From NCBI GenBank assembly GCA_951406725.2, contig OX597814.1, positions 66,836,001 through 66,900,000 of the forward strand: DNA of 64,000 nucleotides, read 5' to 3'. The notes under the pieces were generated by a model. The model was not told the origin of the DNA. It did no database searches and saw only the letters and a list, made by a program, of their open reading frames with translations. This stretch comes from Octopus vulgaris (Eukaryota). Shown here one piece after another: positions 1,130 to 63,686 of the stretch; within the stretch, counting starts at the first letter, position 1, and each line of letters begins with the position of its first letter. The position numbers and the translations under genes were made by a program.

Positions 1130-1718
1130 ATGTTGTAATGTATTTTCTGAGCTTGTAGTTAGGTTCGGTGCCGATCGTGTTTGGTCTCATTAGTTATTCA
1201 ATGATATATTCATTTTATAACCAAGGTGTACATTTTCCTGAACGCATACGATGCAGTTAGTGTATTTCTATTGAGTACTGCATCGCTCCTGATCTTGTGT
1301 TGTGGAATACCTATATTTTAGTCTATTAGCAATGCTAAAGTACATAATACATGATTTAATTGTTACATATATAATGCAGATATATATTACATATATAATA
1401 CATACATAATGCAATAACATTCTTTAGAGTGCGATAGTCTATAAAACAGAAATGAAATTTATAAATTTATTCTTTCTGTGCGACCATGTAATAAATGCAG
1501 TTGGTTTGGGAACCCTATATTAGAGTACTCATTGTTAATCATTGTTAACTAATGTCTGTTTAGCGATTATCTAAGGCTTCATTAGAAGGTGAATATGTGT
1601 GTGTAGAGGGGGCGGTTATAGTCCTGGTTACAGCTATGCCGTTACTCAGAAATTCGTGCTCTTCGAAAATTCTTCTGTCGGTACTGATCTATTGAACCCA
1701 GTCAGCCACAGTCGTTCT

Positions 1719-1757
1719 CTCAACTGACGACTGAATCACAAACTTTAAGTTATTGAG
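1719..1757 (+). ncRNA. Degenerate minimal type I hammerhead-like motif
   Basis: ctcaa-CTGACGA-ctgaatca-CAAA-ctttaagtta-ttgag. Stem I is 5 bp and stem III is near-palindromic, but G12 is lost and stem II is poor. Confidence 0.3.
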
Positions 1758-2384
1758 TTCTTCTCTACTTCCGTGTTTTAACATTATATAATTTCACAAA
1801 CACATAACGTACTATACATGTGTATATGTGCATGTATATATGTATGTATATGTGTGGGGTGGGATGTACATAAACACAAATATATACACACATGCAAACC
1901 ACATACTCACATGTGTGTGTATGAGTGTATGTGTGCGCGTTTAGATTTATCAATAAAGCCATAAAATTGGTTTTTGTATAAACCAATATATTTGCCCCAT
2001 TTCCTACAATTAATTATGTAGGAAAATCATTCTAGATGGAGCATTGTTTCACACTGCTAAAGACCGCACACATAACTCGCACACATAATATTTCCAGGTT
2101 CTAGTAGGAAAAAAGGGAGGGACTTAGCCCGAATGCTGGTGACAGAGCGAACTCCGCTAAAAGTGCCCCAAGTAGTTAATCCGGGTGTCATATAAAGTCT
2201 ACCGACTGAGATCATTGAGTGTAATGGTGCCACACAGTGGAATTGAAAACGGGACCTCAAAATTGTGTGGAAAATTTCTTGATCATTGTCTCTATCAAAT
2301 CCATTACAAACGTCATATGAAATGACGAACAGATAACAATAAAGGCAGAATATATAACATAATCCCTGCCGATAACAATCTTAA

Positions 2385-2592
2385 TAGCAGCAGCAGCAGT
2401 AGCAGTACCAGCAGTAGTAGTACCAGCAGAAGTCGTAGCAGCAGCAGTAGTCGTAGCAGCAGCAGCAGTAGTCGTAGCAGCTGCAGCAGCAGCAGCAGCA
2501 GCAGTAGCAGTAGTAGTAGTAGCAGTAGTAGTAGTAGTAGTAGTAGGAGGAGGAGGAGGATGAGGAGGAGTAGTAGGAGGAGGAGGAGGAGG
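2385..2592. repeat. Compound (CAG)/(TAG)/(GAG) trinucleotide tract
   Basis: Direct reading; tag triplets interrupt any + strand frame. Confidence 0.9.
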
Positions 2593-4091
2593 AATAACCG
2601 CTTTGTCGGATAAAACCAGTGGTAGTGACGTCGATTAATTTGTCCTTGATCTGTCTGATCAAGGATCACAAGAGTTGCAACCGTCACAATCGATTCTTTC
2701 TTCTATGAAATAGTACATGCAGGAATACACTGTCCAATATGCTACTTTATAGATTGCAGAGTACCATTTCAGAGAGATATTTCTACCATTTATAACACTT
2801 GCCGGAGATGATTTATATAGTGTTGGTAATTATATTTTTCTCGGTTGTGGGGCTGGTAGTGGAGGCAACGATAACGGGCAGGTTGATACTGATGATGTTG
2901 GTGGTAGTAATTGGGCTGTTGTAAGTAATGGGAGTACTGTTATTGCTACTGCTGCTGCTGTTGCTGCTGCCACTACTGCTGTATATTTGTGGTGGTATTG
3001 GTTATGACATTTCAAATACCACCTTACCGATTTAGAAAACGTGTGGAGGATTCGTGAGGGAGTGGGGATGGGGAGGGCAGCTGTACTGTAAAGATAAGAA
3101 AAATGAGGGGACGGGATCATAGCTGCTTCGTGAAAAAGTGAGCAGGCATAGGGAGTAGGAGAGAAAGGGAGACGACCTTTATCTAGCTAATGTCTTGGCT
3201 GTTAGTGCAAACAGACAGCTCTGATTTATATCGTGAATCTATACATATACACACATGCACACTCATTCATTCACTTATTTATTTACACATACACTTACAC
3301 ACAAACACATATTCATATATCCACCAGCTGTTGTCGGATTAGCCGAGTGATGTGTTCCCTGGGTGGTGGATTGGGAATTCCTTGGAAACAAGATTGTTTC
3401 GAATAAGAAAACGTGAGCCATTTGTAGAATACAATAGAATACAATAGAATACTGCACACACTCCTCAAATCAATCTTAAACTAATCGAAATTTAACACTC
3501 GTTTCAGTCAGATTAGCGGGAACTTACGTCCAACAGCAAGCCTAAGAATTATGAGGCTACAGGACGCGAAAATCAAAACCTAAACTCCAAAGCACTTTCA
3601 TATGCATTTAGAATACGTATATTGTGTCAGAAGAATTCCATTTAACTAACTGATCAGATAGAAAATATAAATTAGCACATCTTAGGGATCAGTGAATTTT
3701 GAAGACCTGATGAAGTGTTAATAGAAAGAAAAAAGTACCTTTTCTACCATGTAGGCAAAGAAGGATTTAAGGTGGATTAAATTAAGAACAACATCTAGAA
3801 CTTTAAACATTTCTGATCGTGTAGCCAACTTTGTTTGGAAGATAGCAATGAAGTGCTATCTCAAAATAATCCAAATAAATCTAATAACATATGCAAATGC
3901 TCTAAAAGAGTAGGAAATATTTTACGAGGTCAACGAAGCAATTGATTGTCACAAATGAGAGACTTAAACGCCAATATAGGATAAGGAAACGAGCACTGTT
4001 CAGGAAAATACAAGACACGGGAAATTACAGAGGATAAGACCAAATAAACTGTCATAATATACAATATTGCATTTTTTGCTTAGTACTGTCC

Positions 4092-8468: not shown

Positions 8469-8479
8469 TATATAACGAA

Positions 8480-10612
8480 ATGAAGGAAGACATTACAGAA
8501 TTTTGTAGAAAATTGCGACTTAGTGAGGAACTATTCGACCAGCACAATGAGGATGAGTCACTAGCTAGAAATAAAAGCAACTACACCCCACCAAAAGGTA
8601 GAAATAAAATCCTAGACGAATTCTGTGAGCACATTACAAACTTCCCCTACCAACACTTACACAAACCAAAACCCAAACCAAACCTCAACAAGAAAGAGTG
8701 GGAAGAATTAAACAAATTAAAAAATGAAAGATCTATCACCATTAAAGAGGCCGATAAAGGAAGTGCAGTAGTCTTAATGGAGACAGAATACTATATCAAC
8801 TTAGCACTCTCCACCTTGGAAAATGGAACATATTACGAAAAGGCTGAACACTACAATCAACAGAAAATTATGAGAAACTTAAAAACCCTGATCAACCCCC
8901 ACAAAGAAGAACTCACTAACAAAGAATTCAACTTCATCACAAATTTCACTAGTAAAACCAGCCTCTTCTACGGTATTCCCAAAATTCATAAAAGCGAATT
9001 AATAAGTAAGGCATGCAAGGAAGCCACAAACTCTGTAATCAATGTCCCCTCACCAAATGACCTCAAATTGAGACCTATAATAGCAGGTCCCGCGTGCGAA
9101 ACCCACCGCCTTAGCAACTTCATTGATACCCTTCTCAAGCCGTTCCTCAAACACATTAAAAGCTACATAAGGGACGATCTAGATATGCTTAACCACCTCC
9201 CCAATACACTTCTTGCTGAACAAACCCTGCTAGTAACATTCGATGTAGTTAATCTTTACTCCAACATCCCCCACAACCTAGGAATAGAAGCTATCCAATT
9301 CTGGCTGGATAATTACTCCAACGAACTCCCACACCGCATCAAAAAGGAATTTATTTTAGAAGGACTCAAATTCATCTTAGAGAATAATTTCTTCACCTTC
9401 AACAACAAATTCTACAGACAGAAAATCAGGGACGGCAATGGGAACGAAGACAGCTCCCACTTACGCCAACCTAGTCATGGGATACCTGGAAATCACCCTC
9501 TATAATAACGTTCTTAACCACTCTCCACACACACATAGAGAAGAACTGGAAGAGATATCTTGATGACTGCTTCATCCTTTGGCCCGAAACCGTCGAGAAG
9601 CTTAAAGAATTTCACACCCTTATAAATGGGCTCAACACAAACATTATTTTCACAATGGAATACAGCCCTCAACAAATTCCCTTCCTCGACATCCTCATTA
9701 AAATTCACAACAAAAAAATAGAAACAGACATATACTACAAGCCCACAGACTCCAAGCAATACCTCCCTTTCAATTCATGCCACTCTAGACACGTTAAAAT
9801 TAACATTCCCTACAACTTAGCCAAGAGAATTTGCACTATAGTCTCCAATAAAAACACCCGTCTCTTACGTCTACAAGAACTCAAGGGCACATTAACAAGC
9901 AGGGATTACCCCACGTCACTAATTGACAATGGGATCCAACGCGCCCTAAAACTCAGCACACAGGAACTTAGACGCCCTAAACCTGTTACATCGAAACCCC
10001 ATACTCTACCATACATCTCTACACACAGCCCCCTCAACAATGAAGCTTTTGACACCATCCTCCAGAACATTCCTGTATTAAAAAAGGACCACAGAATGAA
10101 CCAAATCCTCCTAACACACGAAATCATAAAGAGCAAAAGGCAACCCAAATCATTGAAAACCATCCTAACAAATGCCAAAGTACTGCCAACCACAGCAACT
10201 AAACCCACAGTAAACAAATGCAATAGACCCAACTGTGGTATATGCATCAACCTAATAGAAGGTCCGGAATTCCTTTTTAAACAAGGACAACGTTTCACAG
10301 TAAAACACAACTTCACATGCGCATCAGAAAACCTAGTATATGTCTTAACTTGCTCGGGCTGTAATGAACACTACATAGGCCAAACTAAAAATAGCCTCCG
10401 CCAACGCATGACTGTCCACAGATCCCAAATAAAAATACAGGAATACAGAAAAATAGCACTTAGTGCACATATTGATACCTGTGCCGCACAACTCCATCCC
10501 AATTTTAGAATCTTTCCCCTCTACAAATTTAAAGACAATGCCACTCATACCCATGGAATCCCACCTTATTAATAAATACAGACCACTTCTAAACACATCC
10601 CCCTAACACGAA
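8480..10612 (+). pseudogene. PLE reverse transcriptase + GIY-YIG endonuclease, frameshifted
   Basis: [34 protein letters not shown] (after a frameshift near 9429), WKRYLDD, PFLD, YYKPT, CNRPNCGIC linker, LVYVLTCSGCNEHYIGQT. Confidence 0.93.
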
Positions 10613-11484
10613 CCCACAACAAACACACTTACACCTGCACACACCCTACACACACCTTTACCCAGATATTAACACCATGACACACGCAAATATATGGTTC
10701 CACACATACACATAATTGAATACGGGTGCAAAATATCCAACACTATTTTTTGGAAATGTCTGTAAATATTGACTTCACACAAACACGTTGCTTCCCGATA
10801 CAGGCACAAGGCCAGCAGAACTATAAATATTGAAAATTGTACCCACACACGCACACATATATACACGCGCGCGCGCCCCAACATATATATAAACACACAC
10901 ACACTCACACACACACACACACACATACACACACATACACACACACACGCGCGCGCGCGCACACACATACATACATACAGCTCTTCCTGTCCTAAACGAA
11001 CTTACTTATCCAGCTCAAATTCAGTCAAGCGGAAAATACACTCCCTAACTACGCACTGAAAAGCTATTTAAAATATCCACATGACGTCTACTGACCAGCC
11101 TGAACAATAAGAATTTTCAACAACGCTATTTTCGAAAATTCTAAACATTCACGTGACCTCTTTATTATGACCACATCCACGTGACCTCTTTATTATGACC
11201 AATAAGAAATTTTAGGCGCGACACTAGCCAAATTTTAACTTCTCTGGAGCCTTTTTTCTTACCCCAACACCAACTTCCATTCAAACATTCACGTGACCCC
11301 TTCATAATGACCAATCAAAATTGTATTGACCATTGTCCACAAGAAATTTTAGGCGCGAAACCAAGCAAATCCAAAACAACTCTGGAGCCTCTTTTTTCAC
11401 ATATAAGAGACAGCAAACCCAACATAAAGTCAGATAAGAGGAAAAAATCTATCAGAGAAGGAACTCTAATCTCTCTTTAAAAAA

Positions 11485-36410: not shown

Positions 36411-36813
<403 letters not shown>

Positions 36814-49789: not shown

Positions 49790-49992
49790 AGCTTTCTTCC
49801 AAGGAATCTAGTGCTCTTACCTGAGTTTTTCCTTGGGGCTGGCCAGAAATTTGCCGAAATTGCAAAGATAATTTGGAACTCGACTGAGGAAAGAAAACTT
49901 CGAATGACACGTCCGTGTTTTTTCTTCTCCCTTTTTTGTGTCATCTATCTGTCTGGATGTTTTGCGTTCTTGTCCCATTTTTTGTATTCCTT

Positions 49993-49995
<3 letters not shown>
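49790..49995 (+). mobile_element. Family D element; permuted hammerhead with substrate strand deleted (49837-49904)
   Basis: Homologous to 57675-57880 and 60580-60820; retains ggctg, ccag, gccGAAAttgc, atttgg and CTGAGGA. Confidence 0.75.
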
Positions 49996-50028
<33 letters not shown>

Positions 50029-51049: not shown

Positions 51050-52877
51050 AGAAAACAAAAATAATAAACCTCTCTAATATAACCCTTACACCAACCCAAA
51101 TTAACATCCTAGCCAGAGACTTGAAATTCACACCTACCCCAAGAACACCCAAGAACACCCAAGGATGACATTTCTGAATTTTGCAGAAAACTTCGGTTAA
51201 CAGAAGCTTTTACAGACCTCAACAATGAGGATGATTCAATTGTCCAAAACAAAAGTAACTACCTACCATCAAAAGGAAGAAATAAAGCACTGTACGATTT
51301 TTGCAACCACATCCAGAGTCTCCCCTTTACCCCATACAAAACCAAGGTTAAGTCCAACTTTAATAAGGATGAATGGAAAAACCTACGAGACCTACAACAG
51401 GACAAAAGCCTTACTATCAAAGATGCCGACAAAGGTAGTACTGTGGTCCTTGTGGACACGGATTTTTATAAACACCTAGTGCTTTCCTTGCTAAACAACA
51501 ACACTTTCTATGAGGTAATCACCAACTATAAACAACAAAAAACACTAAAAAACCTCACCACCCTCATACTCCAACACGGTCAAGGGCTCACGGAAAAAAT
51601 GCAAGCCCAACCTCTTTTATGGCCTTCCTAAAGTCCATAACCGAAGCCTGCAAACTTTCCTCTGACATCCACATCAACATCAAAGCACCGGAGGACCTAA
51701 AACTAAGGCCCATCGTAGCTGGCACCTCCTGCGAAACACACCGCTTGAGCAATTTCCTGGACATCCTTTTGAAACCTTTCCTTAGTCACATCTACTTAAT
51801 GGAAAACTGGAAAAGATACTTAGATGATTGTGTCATCATATGGAAAAAATCTTATGAAAAGCGTCTGGAATTCAAAACCACACTGAACAACATACATCCC
51901 AACATTCAATTCACTATGGAATTCAGCAAACATCATCTCCCTTTCCTTGATCTCCTAATTATAAAAACACCTAACAACCAAATCACAACAGACATCTACC
52001 ACAAACCTACAGACTCACAACAATACCTCCTCTTCAGTTCATGCCACCCAAAACACACCAAGATAAATATCCCTTTCAACTTAGCTAAAAGGATATGCAC
52101 CATTGTCTCGGATCCCAAAACTCGAGAAATACGCCTTCAAGACCTCAAAAAACACTATTACAACGCCAATATCCCTCCACACTCATAGTCTATGGAATAA
52201 AACGTGCCAAAAATAATACACTGAAAACCACCCAACACAGTAACACACCCAACCCCAAAATACTTCCATACATTTCCGCCCACAACCCCAAAAATATCGA
52301 AGCATACACCACAATCATACAAAACCTCCCCTTACTGTCCACAGACCCAAAAATGAATAATATTATCAATACTCATAAAATCCTTAAATGCAAAAGGCAA
52401 CATAAATCTTTGAAAAAACTCTTAACAAATGCCAAACTTCACACACCACATCCATCCCCATCAGTTAAAAAATGTGCACGCCCTAACTGTGGTACCTGCC
52501 CCTTCCTACTTGGAGGCTCTGAATTTACTTTCAAACAAGGAACAAAGTTTAAAATCAAGACCAACTTCTCCTGTTCTTCCGAGAACCTCATCTACGTTCT
52601 CACATGCGCCCGTTGCCAACACAATTATGTTGGACAAACGAGCCTTCCTTTACGTAGAAGAGTAGCGGTCCATAAAGAACAGATAAATCTCCCACAATAC
52701 CGTCAAATTCCACAAAGTAGCCACATAGACTCTTGCGCTAGAGATAAAAATCCTAAATTTCACATATTCCCTTTCTACCAATGTGAAGACGGAATCTCTA
52801 CACAAGAAAGAATCAACAAGGAGAATTTTTTAATTGAAAAATTTCAAACGCATCTTAATATGCAAACTCCACGATGA
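51050..52877 (+). pseudogene. PLE RT + GIY-YIG, frameshifted, RT core deleted
   Basis: IINLS...LKFTPTP, DADKG, LRPIVAG; jumps from FLSHI to WKRYLDD; CARPNCGTC; LIYVLTCARCQHNYVGQT. Confidence 0.92.
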
Positions 52878-53261
52878 CCATACTCCTCTTTCTAGCATCC
52901 TATCTGACAAAAAATTGATATATGCATCCTGTTTGCATCATTCCAATTAAAGAGCATAAAATCCACAGAGTTGTCTCCCCTTACTCACAGGAACTGGATA
53001 ACTCCTACCCCGTTTCCTGTTTTGACACACATTTACCCAACGCTTTAAACTAATCACTACATTTAAACACATGGATCCTAATCCTCCAAAAAAGCTTTTC
53101 CAAGGACTATTATTGAACTCTAAAAGCATAAAGACTCTACAATGTATTGGTATACTTATTTATTAATTTTTGTATATACGTATTATTATTTTTTTGAAAA
53201 AATCATTGTAAATTTCTTTTTTCCCCTTCCTCAATTTTAAAACAATTTCTTTTCCCCTTCC

Positions 53262-56814: not shown

Positions 56815-57405
56815 TATTTCTTTATTTCCCACAGGGGGCTAAAAGTTGAGGGGACAAACAAGTACAGACAAAGGAATTAAGTCGATTACATCGACCCCAG
56901 TGTGCAAGTGGTACTTATTTAATCGACCCCGAAAGGATGAAAGGTAAAATCGACCTCGGCGGAATTTGAACGTAACGGCAGCAAAATACCTATTTCTTTA
57001 CTACCAGAAAGGACGAAGCACAGAGAGGACAAACAAGGATAGACAAATGGATTAAGTCGATTACATCGACCCCAATGCGTAACTGGTACTTAATTTATCG
57101 ACCCCAAAGGATGAAAGGCAAAATCGACCTCGGCGGAATTTGAACTCAGAACGCAGCGGCGGACAAAATACCTATTTCTTTACTACACACAAGAGGCTAA
57201 ACACAGAGGCGACAAACAAGGACAGACAGACGGATTAAGTCGATTATATCAATCGTAGTGCGTAACTGGTACTTAATTTATCGACCCCGAAAGGATGAAA
57301 TGCAAAGTCGACCTCGGCGGAATTTGAACTCAGAACGTAGCGGCAGACGAAATACCGCTAAGCATTTCGCCCGGCGTGCTAACGATTCTGCCAGCTCGCC
57401 GCCTT
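56815..57405 (-). mobile_element. SINE family A with three tandem core+tail modules
   Basis: gtcgatta(c/t)atc recurs at 56881, 57056 and 57239; single head at 57345-57405. Confidence 0.9.
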
Positions 57406-57622: not shown

Positions 57623-57671
<49 letters not shown>

Positions 57672-57674
57672 TAT

Positions 57675-58320
57675 ATGTAGAAAAATACAAACTGGGACAA
57701 GAACGTAAAACATTTAGAAGACGATACAAAAAACATGGACGGGACATTCGAAGCCTTCAATCTTCAGTCAAGAACCGGATCATCCTAGCAATTTCGGCTG
57801 ATTAATCTTGAGATCGCTCCGATCCGGCCAGCCCCAAGGAAAAACTAAGCTACGAGCATTAGATTTCTTGGAAGAAGGATCGAATGTATACGAAACAGGG
57901 ACAGAAAAACGGACGATGCCACACGAATATAAAATACAAAAAACAATAATGGTAAAAACAGGACAAAAACAGCGGGTGTCTTACGACTAATAAACAGTAC
58001 AACAAGTTTAGCTGGCGTATTTGGAAAAAATGCCTTTATCGGCAGACGAAGACAACAATGTTCTCACGGCAGTGGCCGGAGGCCAAAAGGCTGATTTTGA
58101 GCCAACAGAGTGTAGCAGTCCTATAAAGGACGATGTTACTGTTGTTTTAACCCCAGGGAAACATATTTTTCAGCTGGCTATCGACACAGTTTGTGACCAG
58201 GAACCTAGGTTTGTGAGTATCACGTAAGGCTAGAAATAGGAGCGACGTCATCCCTTGCAAATGCTATACGGACACATATCCGTTAACGGTTATTTTCAAT
58301 ACTTTTCTCGCTGTTTGGTG
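57675..58320 (-). mobile_element. Family D element ending at (TA)n
   Basis: 57680-58030 aligns with 60580-60965; non-coding. Confidence 0.8.
57747..57833 (-). ncRNA. Candidate permuted/pseudoknotted hammerhead (intact copy)
   Basis: ggctg-gccggatc-gg-agcgaTC-tcaaga-ttaat-cagcc-GAAA-ttgct-aggat-gatccggt-tcttga-CTGAAGA-hairpin; all four helices pair fully. Confidence 0.7.
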
Positions 58321-58615: not shown

Positions 58616-58660
<45 letters not shown>

Positions 58661-58666
<6 letters not shown>

Positions 58667-59918
58667 GGCTTAGTAAAATAAATTACTTTGCCGCATACTG
58701 AACTCATTAGAAATAGCAGCCAAAAAAACTTTTTTAAAACTATTTCCAATACTTAAAGAAAATCTCTCTCATATAGTGCTTGTTCAATTCAACTCACGAA
58801 AGTATGAGGGTAGAAACATTAAAAAATCAAATGCAAAGGTTATTTGAGAACGTACGTTTCAAGATTAGTCAAACTCGACACTTCTATCATCAGCTCAGAA
58901 CTCCCTGGTTTGGATTTGAAAACACTGAAAGCAGGAGTATACCTATTCGGCTTCCCATCGCCTCCGAAGATCCACTCGCAACTAACAGTGCCAGCAAATT
59001 CAAATATGCAAGCGAAGAATTTCTGCTCTCCCCCTTCCACCAGCGTGGGTTAAAATCAACAAACAACATGCTTTTTTCGGTAAAATCCGAGGCATTAAAT
59101 AGAGAAAGATGAATTATAATTTCAACAATTGAGGGTAAAATTAATTAATTAATCAATTTCACCAAGTGTTCAGTATGCAAAGGGACCATTTAAGGCGAAT
59201 TCAAATTATTACATTATATAAAAGGGCTTAGTAAAATAAATTACTTTGCCGCATACTGAACTCATTAGAAATAGCAGCCAAAAAAACTTTTTTAAAACTA
59301 TTTCCAATACTTAAAGAAAATCTCTCTCATATAGTGCTTGTTCAATTCAACTCACGAAAGTATGAGGGTAGAAACATTAAAAATCAAATGCAAAGGTTAT
59401 TTGAGAACGTACGTTTCAAGATTAGTCAAACTCGACACTTCTATCATCAGCTCAGAACTCCCTGGTTTGGATTTGAATTTGCTGGCACTGTTAGTTGCGA
59501 GTGGATCTTCGGAGGCGATGGGAAGCCGAATAGGTATACTCCTGCTTTCAGTGTTTTCAAATCCAAACCAGGGAGTTCTGAGCTGATGATAGAAGTGTCG
59601 AGTTTGACTAATCTTGAAACGTACGTTCTCAAATAACCTTTGCATTTGATTTTTTAATGTTTCTACCCTCATACTTTCGTGAGTTGAATTGAACAAGCAC
59701 TATATGAGAGAGATTTTCTTTAAGTATTGGAAATAGTTTTAAAAAGTTTTTTTGGCTGCTATTTCTAATGAGTTCAGTATGCGGCAAAGTAATTTATTTT
59801 ACTAAGCCCTTTTATATAATGTAATAATTTGAATTCGCCTTAAATGGTCCCTTTGCATACTGAACACTTGGTGAAATTGATTAATTAATTAATTTTACCC
59901 TCAATTGTTGAAATTATA
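58661..59918. mobile_element. Retrozyme-like element: 558-bp unit, ~1.5 direct copies plus an inverted copy, in (TA)n
   Basis: aaaagggcttagtaaaata at 58662 and 59220; inversion from about 59471; three HHR copies. Confidence 0.88.
59579..59631 (+). ncRNA. Type I hammerhead with canonical core; identical copies at 58845-58897 (-) and 59402-59454 (-)
   Basis: tgag-CTGATGA-tagaagtgtcgagtttgactaatctt-GAAA-cgtacg-TT-ctca; palindrome AACGTACGTT; irregular stem II. Confidence 0.75.
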
Positions 59919-60019
59919 TATATATATATATATATAAGCAATTGGATGCGCGCACATGTGTGTGTGTGCGCGCGCGCGAATGGTGTGTGTGTGTGTGTAT
60001 GAGCGTGTGTGTGTAATAA

Positions 60020-60586: not shown

Positions 60587-61310
60587 CAAAATGGGACAAG
60601 AACGCAAAACACCCGGACAGTTAGGTGATACAAAGATAGGACAACAAAACAACCAGATAGATGATACAAAGAAAACAAAGACGGGTCATTCGAAGTTTTC
60701 TTTTCTCAGTCAAGTACCAGATTATCTTCGTAATTTCGGCTGATTATACTTGAGATTACTCCAATCCGGCCAGCCCCAAGGAAAAACTAAGCTAAGAGCA
60801 TTAGATTTCTTGGAAGAAAGCAGCGACTGTATACAAAAACAAGGGCGGAAAAAACGGAAAATATTAAAGAAATACAATAAAAATAATAACAGGACATAAC
60901 AATAGGTGTCTTTCGACTAAGGATGAATTAAATTAAGCTAGCGTGTGTGGAAATGAAGCCTTACGGCAGGGATACGAGTTTTCACAAACACAGGGAGGAA
61001 TATCGATGCTGCACGGACAGCGGCCGACCAAGAAAGAAAGAACAGGCTTGGCCGAAAGCCGGTCACATGGGAAGAGGAGAGAGAGAAGTAGAAGCGGAGG
61101 GACAGAAGAATTAAGGAGGGACAAGAAAAAATGACAAGGCACAGTGAAGGGGCTGATAGACGGAAATAGAGTCGCAACAAACTTGCTTGCTGTTAAATTA
61201 TCATTTGTAAGTTTGCGGTATGCATTACGTCTCTTACCTTCGTTTATACATGTGAAATCTGTGATGAGCCTAAATGACGCTGATGACCTGGAGTCGCCTC
61301 TGGTATACAT
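60580..61310 (-). mobile_element. Family D element, second subfamily
   Basis: Aligns with 57675-58030 and 49790-49995; abuts (TA)n. Confidence 0.8.
60689..60775 (-). ncRNA. Candidate permuted hammerhead, covarying copy (G8A in core)
   Basis: ggctg-g-ccggatt-gga-gtaaTC-tcaagta-taat-cagcc-GAAA-ttac-gaagat-aatctgg-tacttga-CTGAGAA. Confidence 0.65.
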
Positions 61311-63424: not shown

Positions 63425-63686
63425 TCTATTTATGCGGCGAGTCCTTTCTTGTTACCACTTTTGCTTTGCAAGGACTGTTTCAACGAAGTTGCGTCTTGTC
63501 CTTACCTTAGAAAAGGCGGAGTAGATGAAACAGGGACAACTGAAGAAGGGGAATATTCCTTGTATTGTATGTTTTGTTTCTCTGTGTTTTTTTTTTTCGT
63601 TGTTCGAAAAATGTTCTTTTCTATGTTTTTGTTTTTATGTTTTCGTTTCTCATTGTGTTCAACTTTTTTGATGTCCTGTACCCATA
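63425..63686 (+). mobile_element. Family J non-coding element in TA-rich context
   Basis: Structured segment followed by a T-rich tail ending gtcctgtacccatata, reminiscent of the family D tail ttcttgtcccat. Confidence 0.55.
63469..63561 (+). ncRNA. Candidate permuted hammerhead, unrelated sequence family
   Basis: aagg-a-ctgtttca-acgaagtt-gcgTC-ttgtcc-tta-cctta-GAAA-aggcggagtaga-tgaaacag-ggacaa-CTGAAGA-aggggaatattcct. P (8 bp) and I (6 bp) are perfect; III is damaged. Confidence 0.55.

Follow-up and report, generated by a model that had tools for sequence, protein, structure and literature searches.

The described hammerheads closest to the motif reported here are the permuted types SGC, CSG and GCS of Eckert et al. 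2023 (PMC10085705), for which cleavage and stem rescue were shown, related SGC and CSG RNAs having been found to cleave in vitro. In type SGC a link of approximately 3 nt joins stem I to stem II and, together with an extra helix, replaces the contact between loops I and II. The available text of that source assumes that CUGANGA and the paired bases adjoining it are uninterruptible. According to the same text, none of its RNAs comes from the genome of a known organism except one GCS candidate, and type CSG is made up of two sequences, from metagenomes. Octopus, Naiad, Acropora and Nippostrongylus are absent from the supplement text that accompanies it.

Hammerheads are also known from retroelements. 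Those of Penelope elements are minimal and carry an extra base between positions 9 and 10.1 (PMC4209133, as available). The hammerhead of an anole Penelope element cleaved only with the help of the element's protein, and insertion in vitro did not require the hammerhead, according to the accessible part of PMC11167929. Craig et al. 2021 described Naiads, a group of Penelope-like elements, without a canonical hammerhead, some of them labelled 'HHR_core' or 'HHR_half_core' (PMC8557442). In the available portions of that paper no structure is given for the half cores, and Naiads of Octopus and Euprymna are among those labelled.

Here we describe a motif in a 64,000-nt stretch of the Octopus vulgaris genome (hereafter the window, numbered from its first base) that has the strand order of type SGC with block C, the strand carrying CUGANGA, split between A9 and G10.1. 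We think it very likely, judging from sequence, that this is an active hammerhead of the reverse-order (non-circular) class that has been opened between these two bases. None of the six permutations of blocks that Eckert et al. consider opens at this point. If the assignment is correct, a helical junction can stand in for the A9-G10.1 link of the catalytic strand, and the six-permutation scheme is extended.

Arrangement of the split-core motif

A hammerhead assembled in a scrambled order had been proposed at 57747..57833 from the letters of the window alone (the sequence-only reading). Direct reading of the minus strand and a descriptor match, which assigns C3, G12, C17 and G10.1 to 57767, 57795, 57812 and 57833, respectively, confirmed that all of the hammerhead parts are present at the positions it gave. 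The limits it gave are too short; with two further helices, P0 and H, the motif spans 57886-57745 on the minus strand (Table 1), the strand on which its G-U pairs lie. The order read from the sequence, S-G-C, is as proposed none of types I-III. The 5' strand of stem II is indeed the upstream GGCUG (57833-57829), and A9, the last base of the C3-A9 strand (57767-57761), is not joined to G10.1 (57833). That standard hammerhead descriptors would miss the motif was also borne out, Rfam at gathering scores giving no match anywhere in the window.

The suggestion that the order is undescribed did not survive comparison with the literature. The order is that of type SGC, and the replacement of the loop I/loop II contact, proposed in the sequence-only reading for the link from stem I to II', is also part of the description of type SGC (PMC10085705, available text). 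What is new is the break between A9 and G10.1, that is, the split in block C. No description of an A9/G10.1 split or of permuted Naiad hammerheads was found in a search that had most of the subscription literature outside its reach.

The core is that of a hammerhead, with CUGANGA, GAAA and an NUH triplet with the U16.1-A15.1 pair. It is kept in full in every sequence group described below, the triplet being AUC, AUA, GUA, GUC or GUU, and N7 of CUGANGA is A in 77, U in 14, G in 8 and C in one of 100 pattern matches. Stem III is 4-7 bp or more in length.

Table 1. Features of the split-core motif and related copies in the window
Feature	Positions	Strand	Support or remarks
Whole split-core motif: P0-H-II-P-III'/UH/I-II'/GAAA/III-P'-I'/CUGAAGA-P0'	57745..57886	-	
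P0, 5' strand: CAUUCGA, U, CCUUC, then UU opposite UU at the junction	57872..57886	-	Covariation, RNAalifold, fold; absent from the sequence-only reading
Hairpin H, 3' end adjoining G10.1	57834..57871	-	Covariation, fold; absent from the sequence-only reading
Stem II, 5' strand GGCUG (G10.1 = 57833)	57829..57833	-	Descriptor; separate from A9
Helix P, 5' strand GCCGGAUC	57821..57828	-	Covariation; corresponds to the type SGC I-II interaction helix
Block S: III' AGCGAU 57818-57813, C17 57812, stem I UCAAGA 57811-57806	57806..57818	-	
Predicted cut	between 57812 and 57811	-	After AUC triplet
5-nt linker from stem I to II'	between 57806 and 57800	-	
Block G: II' CAGCC 57800-57796, GAAA 57795-57792 (G12 = 57795), III AUUGCU 57792-57787	57787..57800	-	
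P' 57781-57774, I' UCUUGA 57773-57768, CUGAAGA 57767-57761	57761..57781	-	
P0, 3' strand, beginning directly after A9	57745..57760	-	Covariation, RNAalifold, fold
5'-truncated unit copy, unit bases 396-828 of 832	57665..58100	-	Ends in a (TA)n run
Second copy, subfamily B	60646..60962	-	Compensatory changes in I, III, P and P0; core mutated to CUGAGAA
Decayed mini-copy	36658..36739	+	Match starts at unit base 682, immediately 3' of the predicted cut
Decayed copy	49794..50010	+	Block S deleted
Decayed copy of the GAAGG-stem-II group	63480..63551	+	Same topology; by-eye comparison

A descriptor of this order gave 13 matches in 114.9 Mb of dinucleotide shuffles, or about 0.007 per 64-kb window, with minimum stem lengths set below those of the window copy, so that the estimate refers to a looser motif. 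A same-order descriptor matched one of 20,000 shuffles of the motif region, and the split-core descriptor found no match in reversed copies of 938 kb.

When 57886-57745 was folded without pseudoknots, the pair probabilities in P0, H, P and III were mostly 0.9-1.0. Stems I and II cross other helices, and folding of this kind cannot draw them. The fold energy of the full motif was modest (z -1.65, with 14 of 200 shuffles equally good), and the shorter region of the sequence-only reading gave no signal (z +0.99 against shuffles). The 57840-57740 transcript suggested there for a cleavage assay lacks H and the 5' strand of P0, and could fail for that reason alone.

Copies in the octopus genome and the partner of stem II

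The octopus genome is 2.8 Gb in size and microsatellite-rich. A strict 32-base pattern for the group to which the window copy belongs (A-D, after the four subfamilies A, B, C and D that are set apart by compensatory changes) has 5196 exact matches genome-wide. A pattern for a second group with GAAGG in stem II, which includes many subfamilies, has 4927; the control gave none in either case. The GAAGG/CCUUC copies surfaced unsought as descriptor matches in the flanks of four loci. With a further 272 exact matches to the motif of the Octopus Naiad consensus, the total exceeds 10,000 exact pattern matches in this one animal genome. The three groups have three different, perfect stem IIs, namely GGCUG/CAGCC, GAAGG/CCUUC and GACAC/GUGUC. 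Type SGC, by contrast, was found in metatranscriptomes, and if the motif is what it appears to be, non-circular permutations move from rare environmental RNAs to high-copy elements of animal genomes.

Within groups, I, III, P, P0 and H covary, and pairs changed on both sides outnumber those in controls in which the partners were slid. The A-D alignment has 31 rows, comprising the window copy, whose row starts 10 bases late, and 30 of 34 selected copies, four rows with indels having been dropped. In it 90.1% of cells were paired and 13 of 55 pairs had changed on both sides, compared with 4-6 for slid partners. Two-sided change was seen in four of the 16 P0 pairs and three of the eight P pairs, and one column of helix P was unpaired in 17 of the 31 rows. 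The GAAGG alignment contains 28 of 31 selected copies and omits P, which the aligner put out of register between subfamilies. Here 98.2% of cells were paired and 10 of 24 pairs had changed on both sides (I 4/5, III 3/5, H 2/4, P0 1/5, II 0/5), with slid partners giving no more than 2. Kinship among the copies inflates these counts. RNAalifold, unaided, recovered P0, inner H, III and part of P. An additional tally of P0 and H (216 of 224) used loose rules without a control and carries no weight as evidence.

No two-sided change in stem II was found within either group (A-D, n=31; GAAGG, n=28). The rows had been picked with patterns that cover stem II and part of P0, so the invariance is partly built in and is uninformative. 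Support for stem II comes instead from the presence of different perfect stems at the same place in different groups.

The bases downstream of A9 were examined for a competing partner, as expected if the motif were an ordinary type SGC hammerhead whose stem II is built from bases just past CUGANGA, leaving the upstream strand, P0 and H as an alternative and perhaps inhibitory fold. Some such pairings exist. In the GAAGG group a weak stem II joined to block C is possible (GGGG/CUUC, 4 bp, two of them G-U, with one extra base), and Penelope minimal hammerheads typically leave a base unpaired between 9 and 10.1 (PMC4209133, as available). In subfamilies A, C and D a 4-bp GGCU/AGCC could form after a 5-nt gap past A9, which would leave a 5-nt bulge, and the Naiad of the spider Sdum is by eye an SGC with an intact block C. 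Against this, subfamily B has no downstream partner even when a 6-nt gap is allowed (1 bp). Among 14 copies compared across the groups, those from A, B, C, D and the Naiad group have no partner longer than 2 bp within 2 nt of A9, and by eye the Naiads of corals, Clytia, Morbakka, Beroe and Pomphorhynchus also lack one. All groups have an upstream stem II of 5-6 bp, with an energy of -8.7 to -12.1 kcal/mol compared with -4.1 for the downstream option of the GAAGG group, and the bases past A9 are occupied by the covarying P0. We regard an ordinary type SGC as quite improbable; in all groups the upstream strand alone is the predicted partner in stem II.

The split-core motif resembles type SGC (the HRIMA-1 motif and its variants) in the order S, G, C, the short linker between stems I and II, the extra I-II helix and the full core. 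In type SGC, block C (I'-CUGANGA-II) is continuous, with no more than 1-2 nt from CUGANGA to stem II, whereas in the octopus motif the 5' strand of II and P lie upstream of block S, and P0 and H are present at the break. The resemblance to type CSG is of another kind, in that moving the front P-I'-CUGANGA of CSG to its end gives the octopus order exactly, but CSG keeps A9 and G10.1 joined and is without P0 or H. If circularised, the octopus motif is an SGC or CSG hammerhead with a two-helix insert after A9. It would thus appear to work like a hammerhead, and it is neither one of types I-III nor an SGC as defined, because block C is split.

Elements that carry the motif

The motif lies within non-coding tandem units of approximately 700-830 nt that are inserted in (TA)n. 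In the A-D group the units are arranged head to tail with spacings of mostly about 660-870 nt, and the window copy is what remains of an 832-base non-coding unit, its 3' 436 bases. In the loci examined, neither the A-D nor the GAAGG units had an ORF joined to them. Like the animal non-LTR retrozymes (PMC7229834; bioRxiv 10.64898/2026.07.22.740005; both as available), these are non-coding head-to-tail tandems, each with a hammerhead, and like the minimal type I hammerheads of Penelope elements (PMC4209133, as available) the motif is near the end of a pLTR-like unit and is irregular between 9 and 10.1. The hammerheads of both those systems are type I (C-G-S), often with a minimal stem III and dependent on dimer formation, and the irregularity is a single extra base. 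In the octopus motif, in contrast, the order is reversed and a two-helix domain lies between 9 and 10.1; the units share the tandem non-coding structure of non-LTR retrozymes and lack their type I hammerhead.

The window's family shares with Naiads the targeting of (TA)n and a motif close to the 3' end, and the Octopus and Euprymna Naiads labelled as half cores carry the same topology. It differs from them in being a non-coding unit and in the sequences of its stems. An insertion bias for (TA)n and a tandem pLTR-like structure were both found, but this feature is not diagnostic of Naiads because it is shared with Neptune-type elements, and the hallmarks of the Naiad ORF (an N-terminal GIY-YIG, a CxC motif and a C-terminal RT) were not found in the window's family in the loci examined, making it at most a non-autonomous Naiad derivative. 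The units would be non-autonomous and retrozyme-like, with a ribozyme architecture that appears to be common to the Naiad Penelope-like elements.

Two candidates for an autonomous partner were rejected. The first, a Neptune-type family, differs in its pLTR, which carries an ordinary minimal-hammerhead-like motif. The second, endonuclease fragments found upstream of units in three loci (L114, L118 and L039), represent separate insertions into TA runs that they share with the units; Pfam has no family for the endonuclease piece.

The Neptune-type Penelope-like family is high-copy and also lies in (TA)n (loci L121-L138, for example L123, minus strand, 1200-3989 and downstream), with long open frames encoding RT, a Cys linker and GIY-YIG. 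The motif in its pLTR has U at position 3, and approximately 110 bases upstream there is an S-G-like hairpin without a matching CUGANGA. The window itself contains two broken Penelope-like RT-endonuclease fragments (8477-10620 and 51161-52880, both on the plus strand), approximately 28% identical to the Neptune-type protein and approximately 50% identical to each other; no split-core motif was found downstream of either.

Other repeats in the window include a 183-base repeat present three times in tandem at 56815-57356, which recurs in many loci and which we take to resemble a SINE-type element. Another repeat inserted in (TA)n, also found in locus L016, is present at 58660-59920 as nested copies in direct and inverted orientation. 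In L005, at the start of a unit, and upstream in L098, a donor-like GTAAGT lies close to where the tandem unit starts and is followed by a long CT-rich tract, which suggests a possible pLTR intron.

The last 330-380 bases of 53 of the 54 Naiad consensi (PMC8557442 File S5) were read by eye, with wider context for eight. Ten of the 53 share the octopus topology. These are from Beroe, Clytia (Clytia 3), Acropora (three, near-identical), Morbakka (Morbakka 2), Pomphorhynchus, Octopus (two, near-identical) and Euprymna, and represent seven independent sequence types from four phyla (a ctenophore, cnidarians, an acanthocephalan and cephalopods). By eye, P0 follows A9 and H precedes G10.1 in these Naiads, the stems being unrelated in sequence to those in the window; stem II is, for example, GGCUCC/GGAGCC, GGGGA/UCCCC or GGCCCC/GGGGCC. 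P0 and H can both be made out clearly by eye in Acropora, Clytia, Morbakka, Beroe and Pomphorhynchus, and the Beroe Naiad has the same two junction U-U mismatches as subfamily A but a stem I of 2 bp. The cephalopod Naiads are less regular, with a mismatch in stem II and an indistinct H in Euprymna and a mismatch in P0 in Octopus. If these assignments are correct, they explain why many Naiads seemed to be without a hammerhead.

Six nematode Naiads (Naiad-1/2/3_Nbra, Hcon, Hpol and Asuum) appear by eye to be clean CSG hammerheads that include a P helix, and if this is right the known examples of type CSG rise from two to at least eight. The arthropod Naiads (Sdum, Smim, Ptep and Dst 1-4) are by eye in S-G-C order, the ostracod ones less certainly so, with other arrangements near A9/10.1. 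Among the spiders, Sdum is SGC-like, its block C being intact and its core U3/A8; Ptep and Smim have another arrangement near A9/10.1, and in Ptep stem II is a local hairpin after stem I. In the other approximately 34 consensi, several of which are incomplete, no hammerhead was seen by eye in the last 330-380 bases; in these the motif may lie further upstream. Bivalve and hemichordate Naiads have a common conserved 3' motif, with no hammerhead in view.

5' ends of copies and a proposed mechanism

The 5' ends of truncated copies were compared with the predicted cut in copies sampled by genome order, with the anchor 3' of that point. Among 92 of 96 A-group copies (four with internal deletions were dropped), 28 ended in 0..+20, nine in -60..-1 and six in +21..+43, giving a hazard ratio of 6.0 (P 3e-7). 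The windows for counting were chosen after the A-group data had been viewed, and the GAAGG group provides an independent test; of 69 copies used out of 70, 17 ended in 0..+10 and nine in -60..-1 (ratio 7.8, P 5e-7). Microhomology with TA was rejected as the cause of the pile-up in the GAAGG group, as 0..+10 there is 36% AT with no TA or AT step (three copies), compared with 62-72% AT upstream. It possibly contributes in the A group, in which 0..+20 is AT-richer. Genome-wide, junctions at which a TA run meets the element gave 194 matches at the cut, 35 at about -9 and 25 at about -22, some places being counted twice. Among the 92 distinct junction places listed, 81 are by eye without C17 and 11 have it. 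In contigs of four runs guessed to be RNA, summed depth falls 5' of the cut, but contigs show neither ends nor levels and genomic truncation gives this shape as well, so it carries no weight here. A pile-up of copy ends at the cut would be expected if reverse transcription ran to a 5' end made by a ribozyme, and is indirect evidence of cleavage in vivo. Together with the variation of stem II across families, it supports an active ribozyme. The footprint is relevant to the question of whether ribozymes of the Penelope type cut in vivo and have a part in shaping insertions.

The fold could also be real and non-catalytic, a signal for recognition or stalling by a retroelement protein, with the pile-up made by RT stops or a protein nuclease. 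The anole element offers a parallel, its hammerhead being unneeded for insertion with no RNA ends at its cut, according to the accessible part of PMC11167929. On the other hand, the full core and NUH triplet are kept in every group while the stems turn over and N7 is free, the ends at 0..+10 are past the point at which an advancing RT would have opened I', P' and III, and they drop sharply at -1, with C17 usually lost. We therefore hold a non-catalytic role to be very unlikely.

In the active-ribozyme reading, the chain would enter via P0, form H, lay down the 5' strand of II and P and then blocks S and G and I'-CUGANGA, and leave through P0 directly past A9. P0 and H are envisaged as stacking beside stem II and the core as a four-way junction, which would hold A9 beside G10.1 without a covalent link. 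Helix P and the short linker from I to II' would dock stems I and II, as in SGC, and the standard core would cut after the NUH triplet, AUC in the window copy. In hammerhead chemistry G12 acts as the base and the 2'-OH of G8 as the acid. Cuts in a tandem transcript would release unit-length RNA. Reverse transcription would start near the (TA)n end, approximately 100 nt past the core, and run off the cut 5' end, giving mini-copies. P0, P, II and III would keep the two ends of a cut monomer close to each other and so favour its ligation into a circle, and circles serving as templates for tandems would explain head-to-tail arrays with intact ribozymes. Since transfer of P-I'-CUGANGA to the end turns CSG into this motif, a tandem duplication with its boundary after A9 could have produced it from CSG.

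Cleavage might alternatively occur in trans, or after splicing has rejoined A9 to G10.1 in a dimer of tandem units or a back-spliced circle. The units are tandem, a polypyrimidine-CAG precedes G10.1 in the GAAGG group, and the Penelope minimal hammerheads were proposed to act as dimers, one of them overlapping an intron end (PMC4209133, available part). Splice rejoining was rejected, as no group has a GU donor past A9 and the CAG forms the 3' end of hairpin H, where CGG is often found instead together with a compensatory change. A single copy suffices to form all six helices, and we consider such routes extremely unlikely.

On balance we lean towards a broader interpretation, in which this is a seventh natural hammerhead arrangement, active as a monomer, with CUGANGA severed from stem II and a four-way junction keeping it in place. 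It would be the usual 3'-end ribozyme of Naiads and their non-autonomous derivatives from ctenophores to cephalopods, nematode CSG and spider SGC being circular openings of one ancestral reverse-order ribozyme. The cut would determine where the RNA template for genomic copies begins at its 5' end, and the helices would keep the cut ends together for circularisation. If so, engineers also gain a new site at which to open a hammerhead or insert domains.

Several copies have short inverted or duplicated pieces of the element at the 5' junction, as known for Penelope-like insertions.
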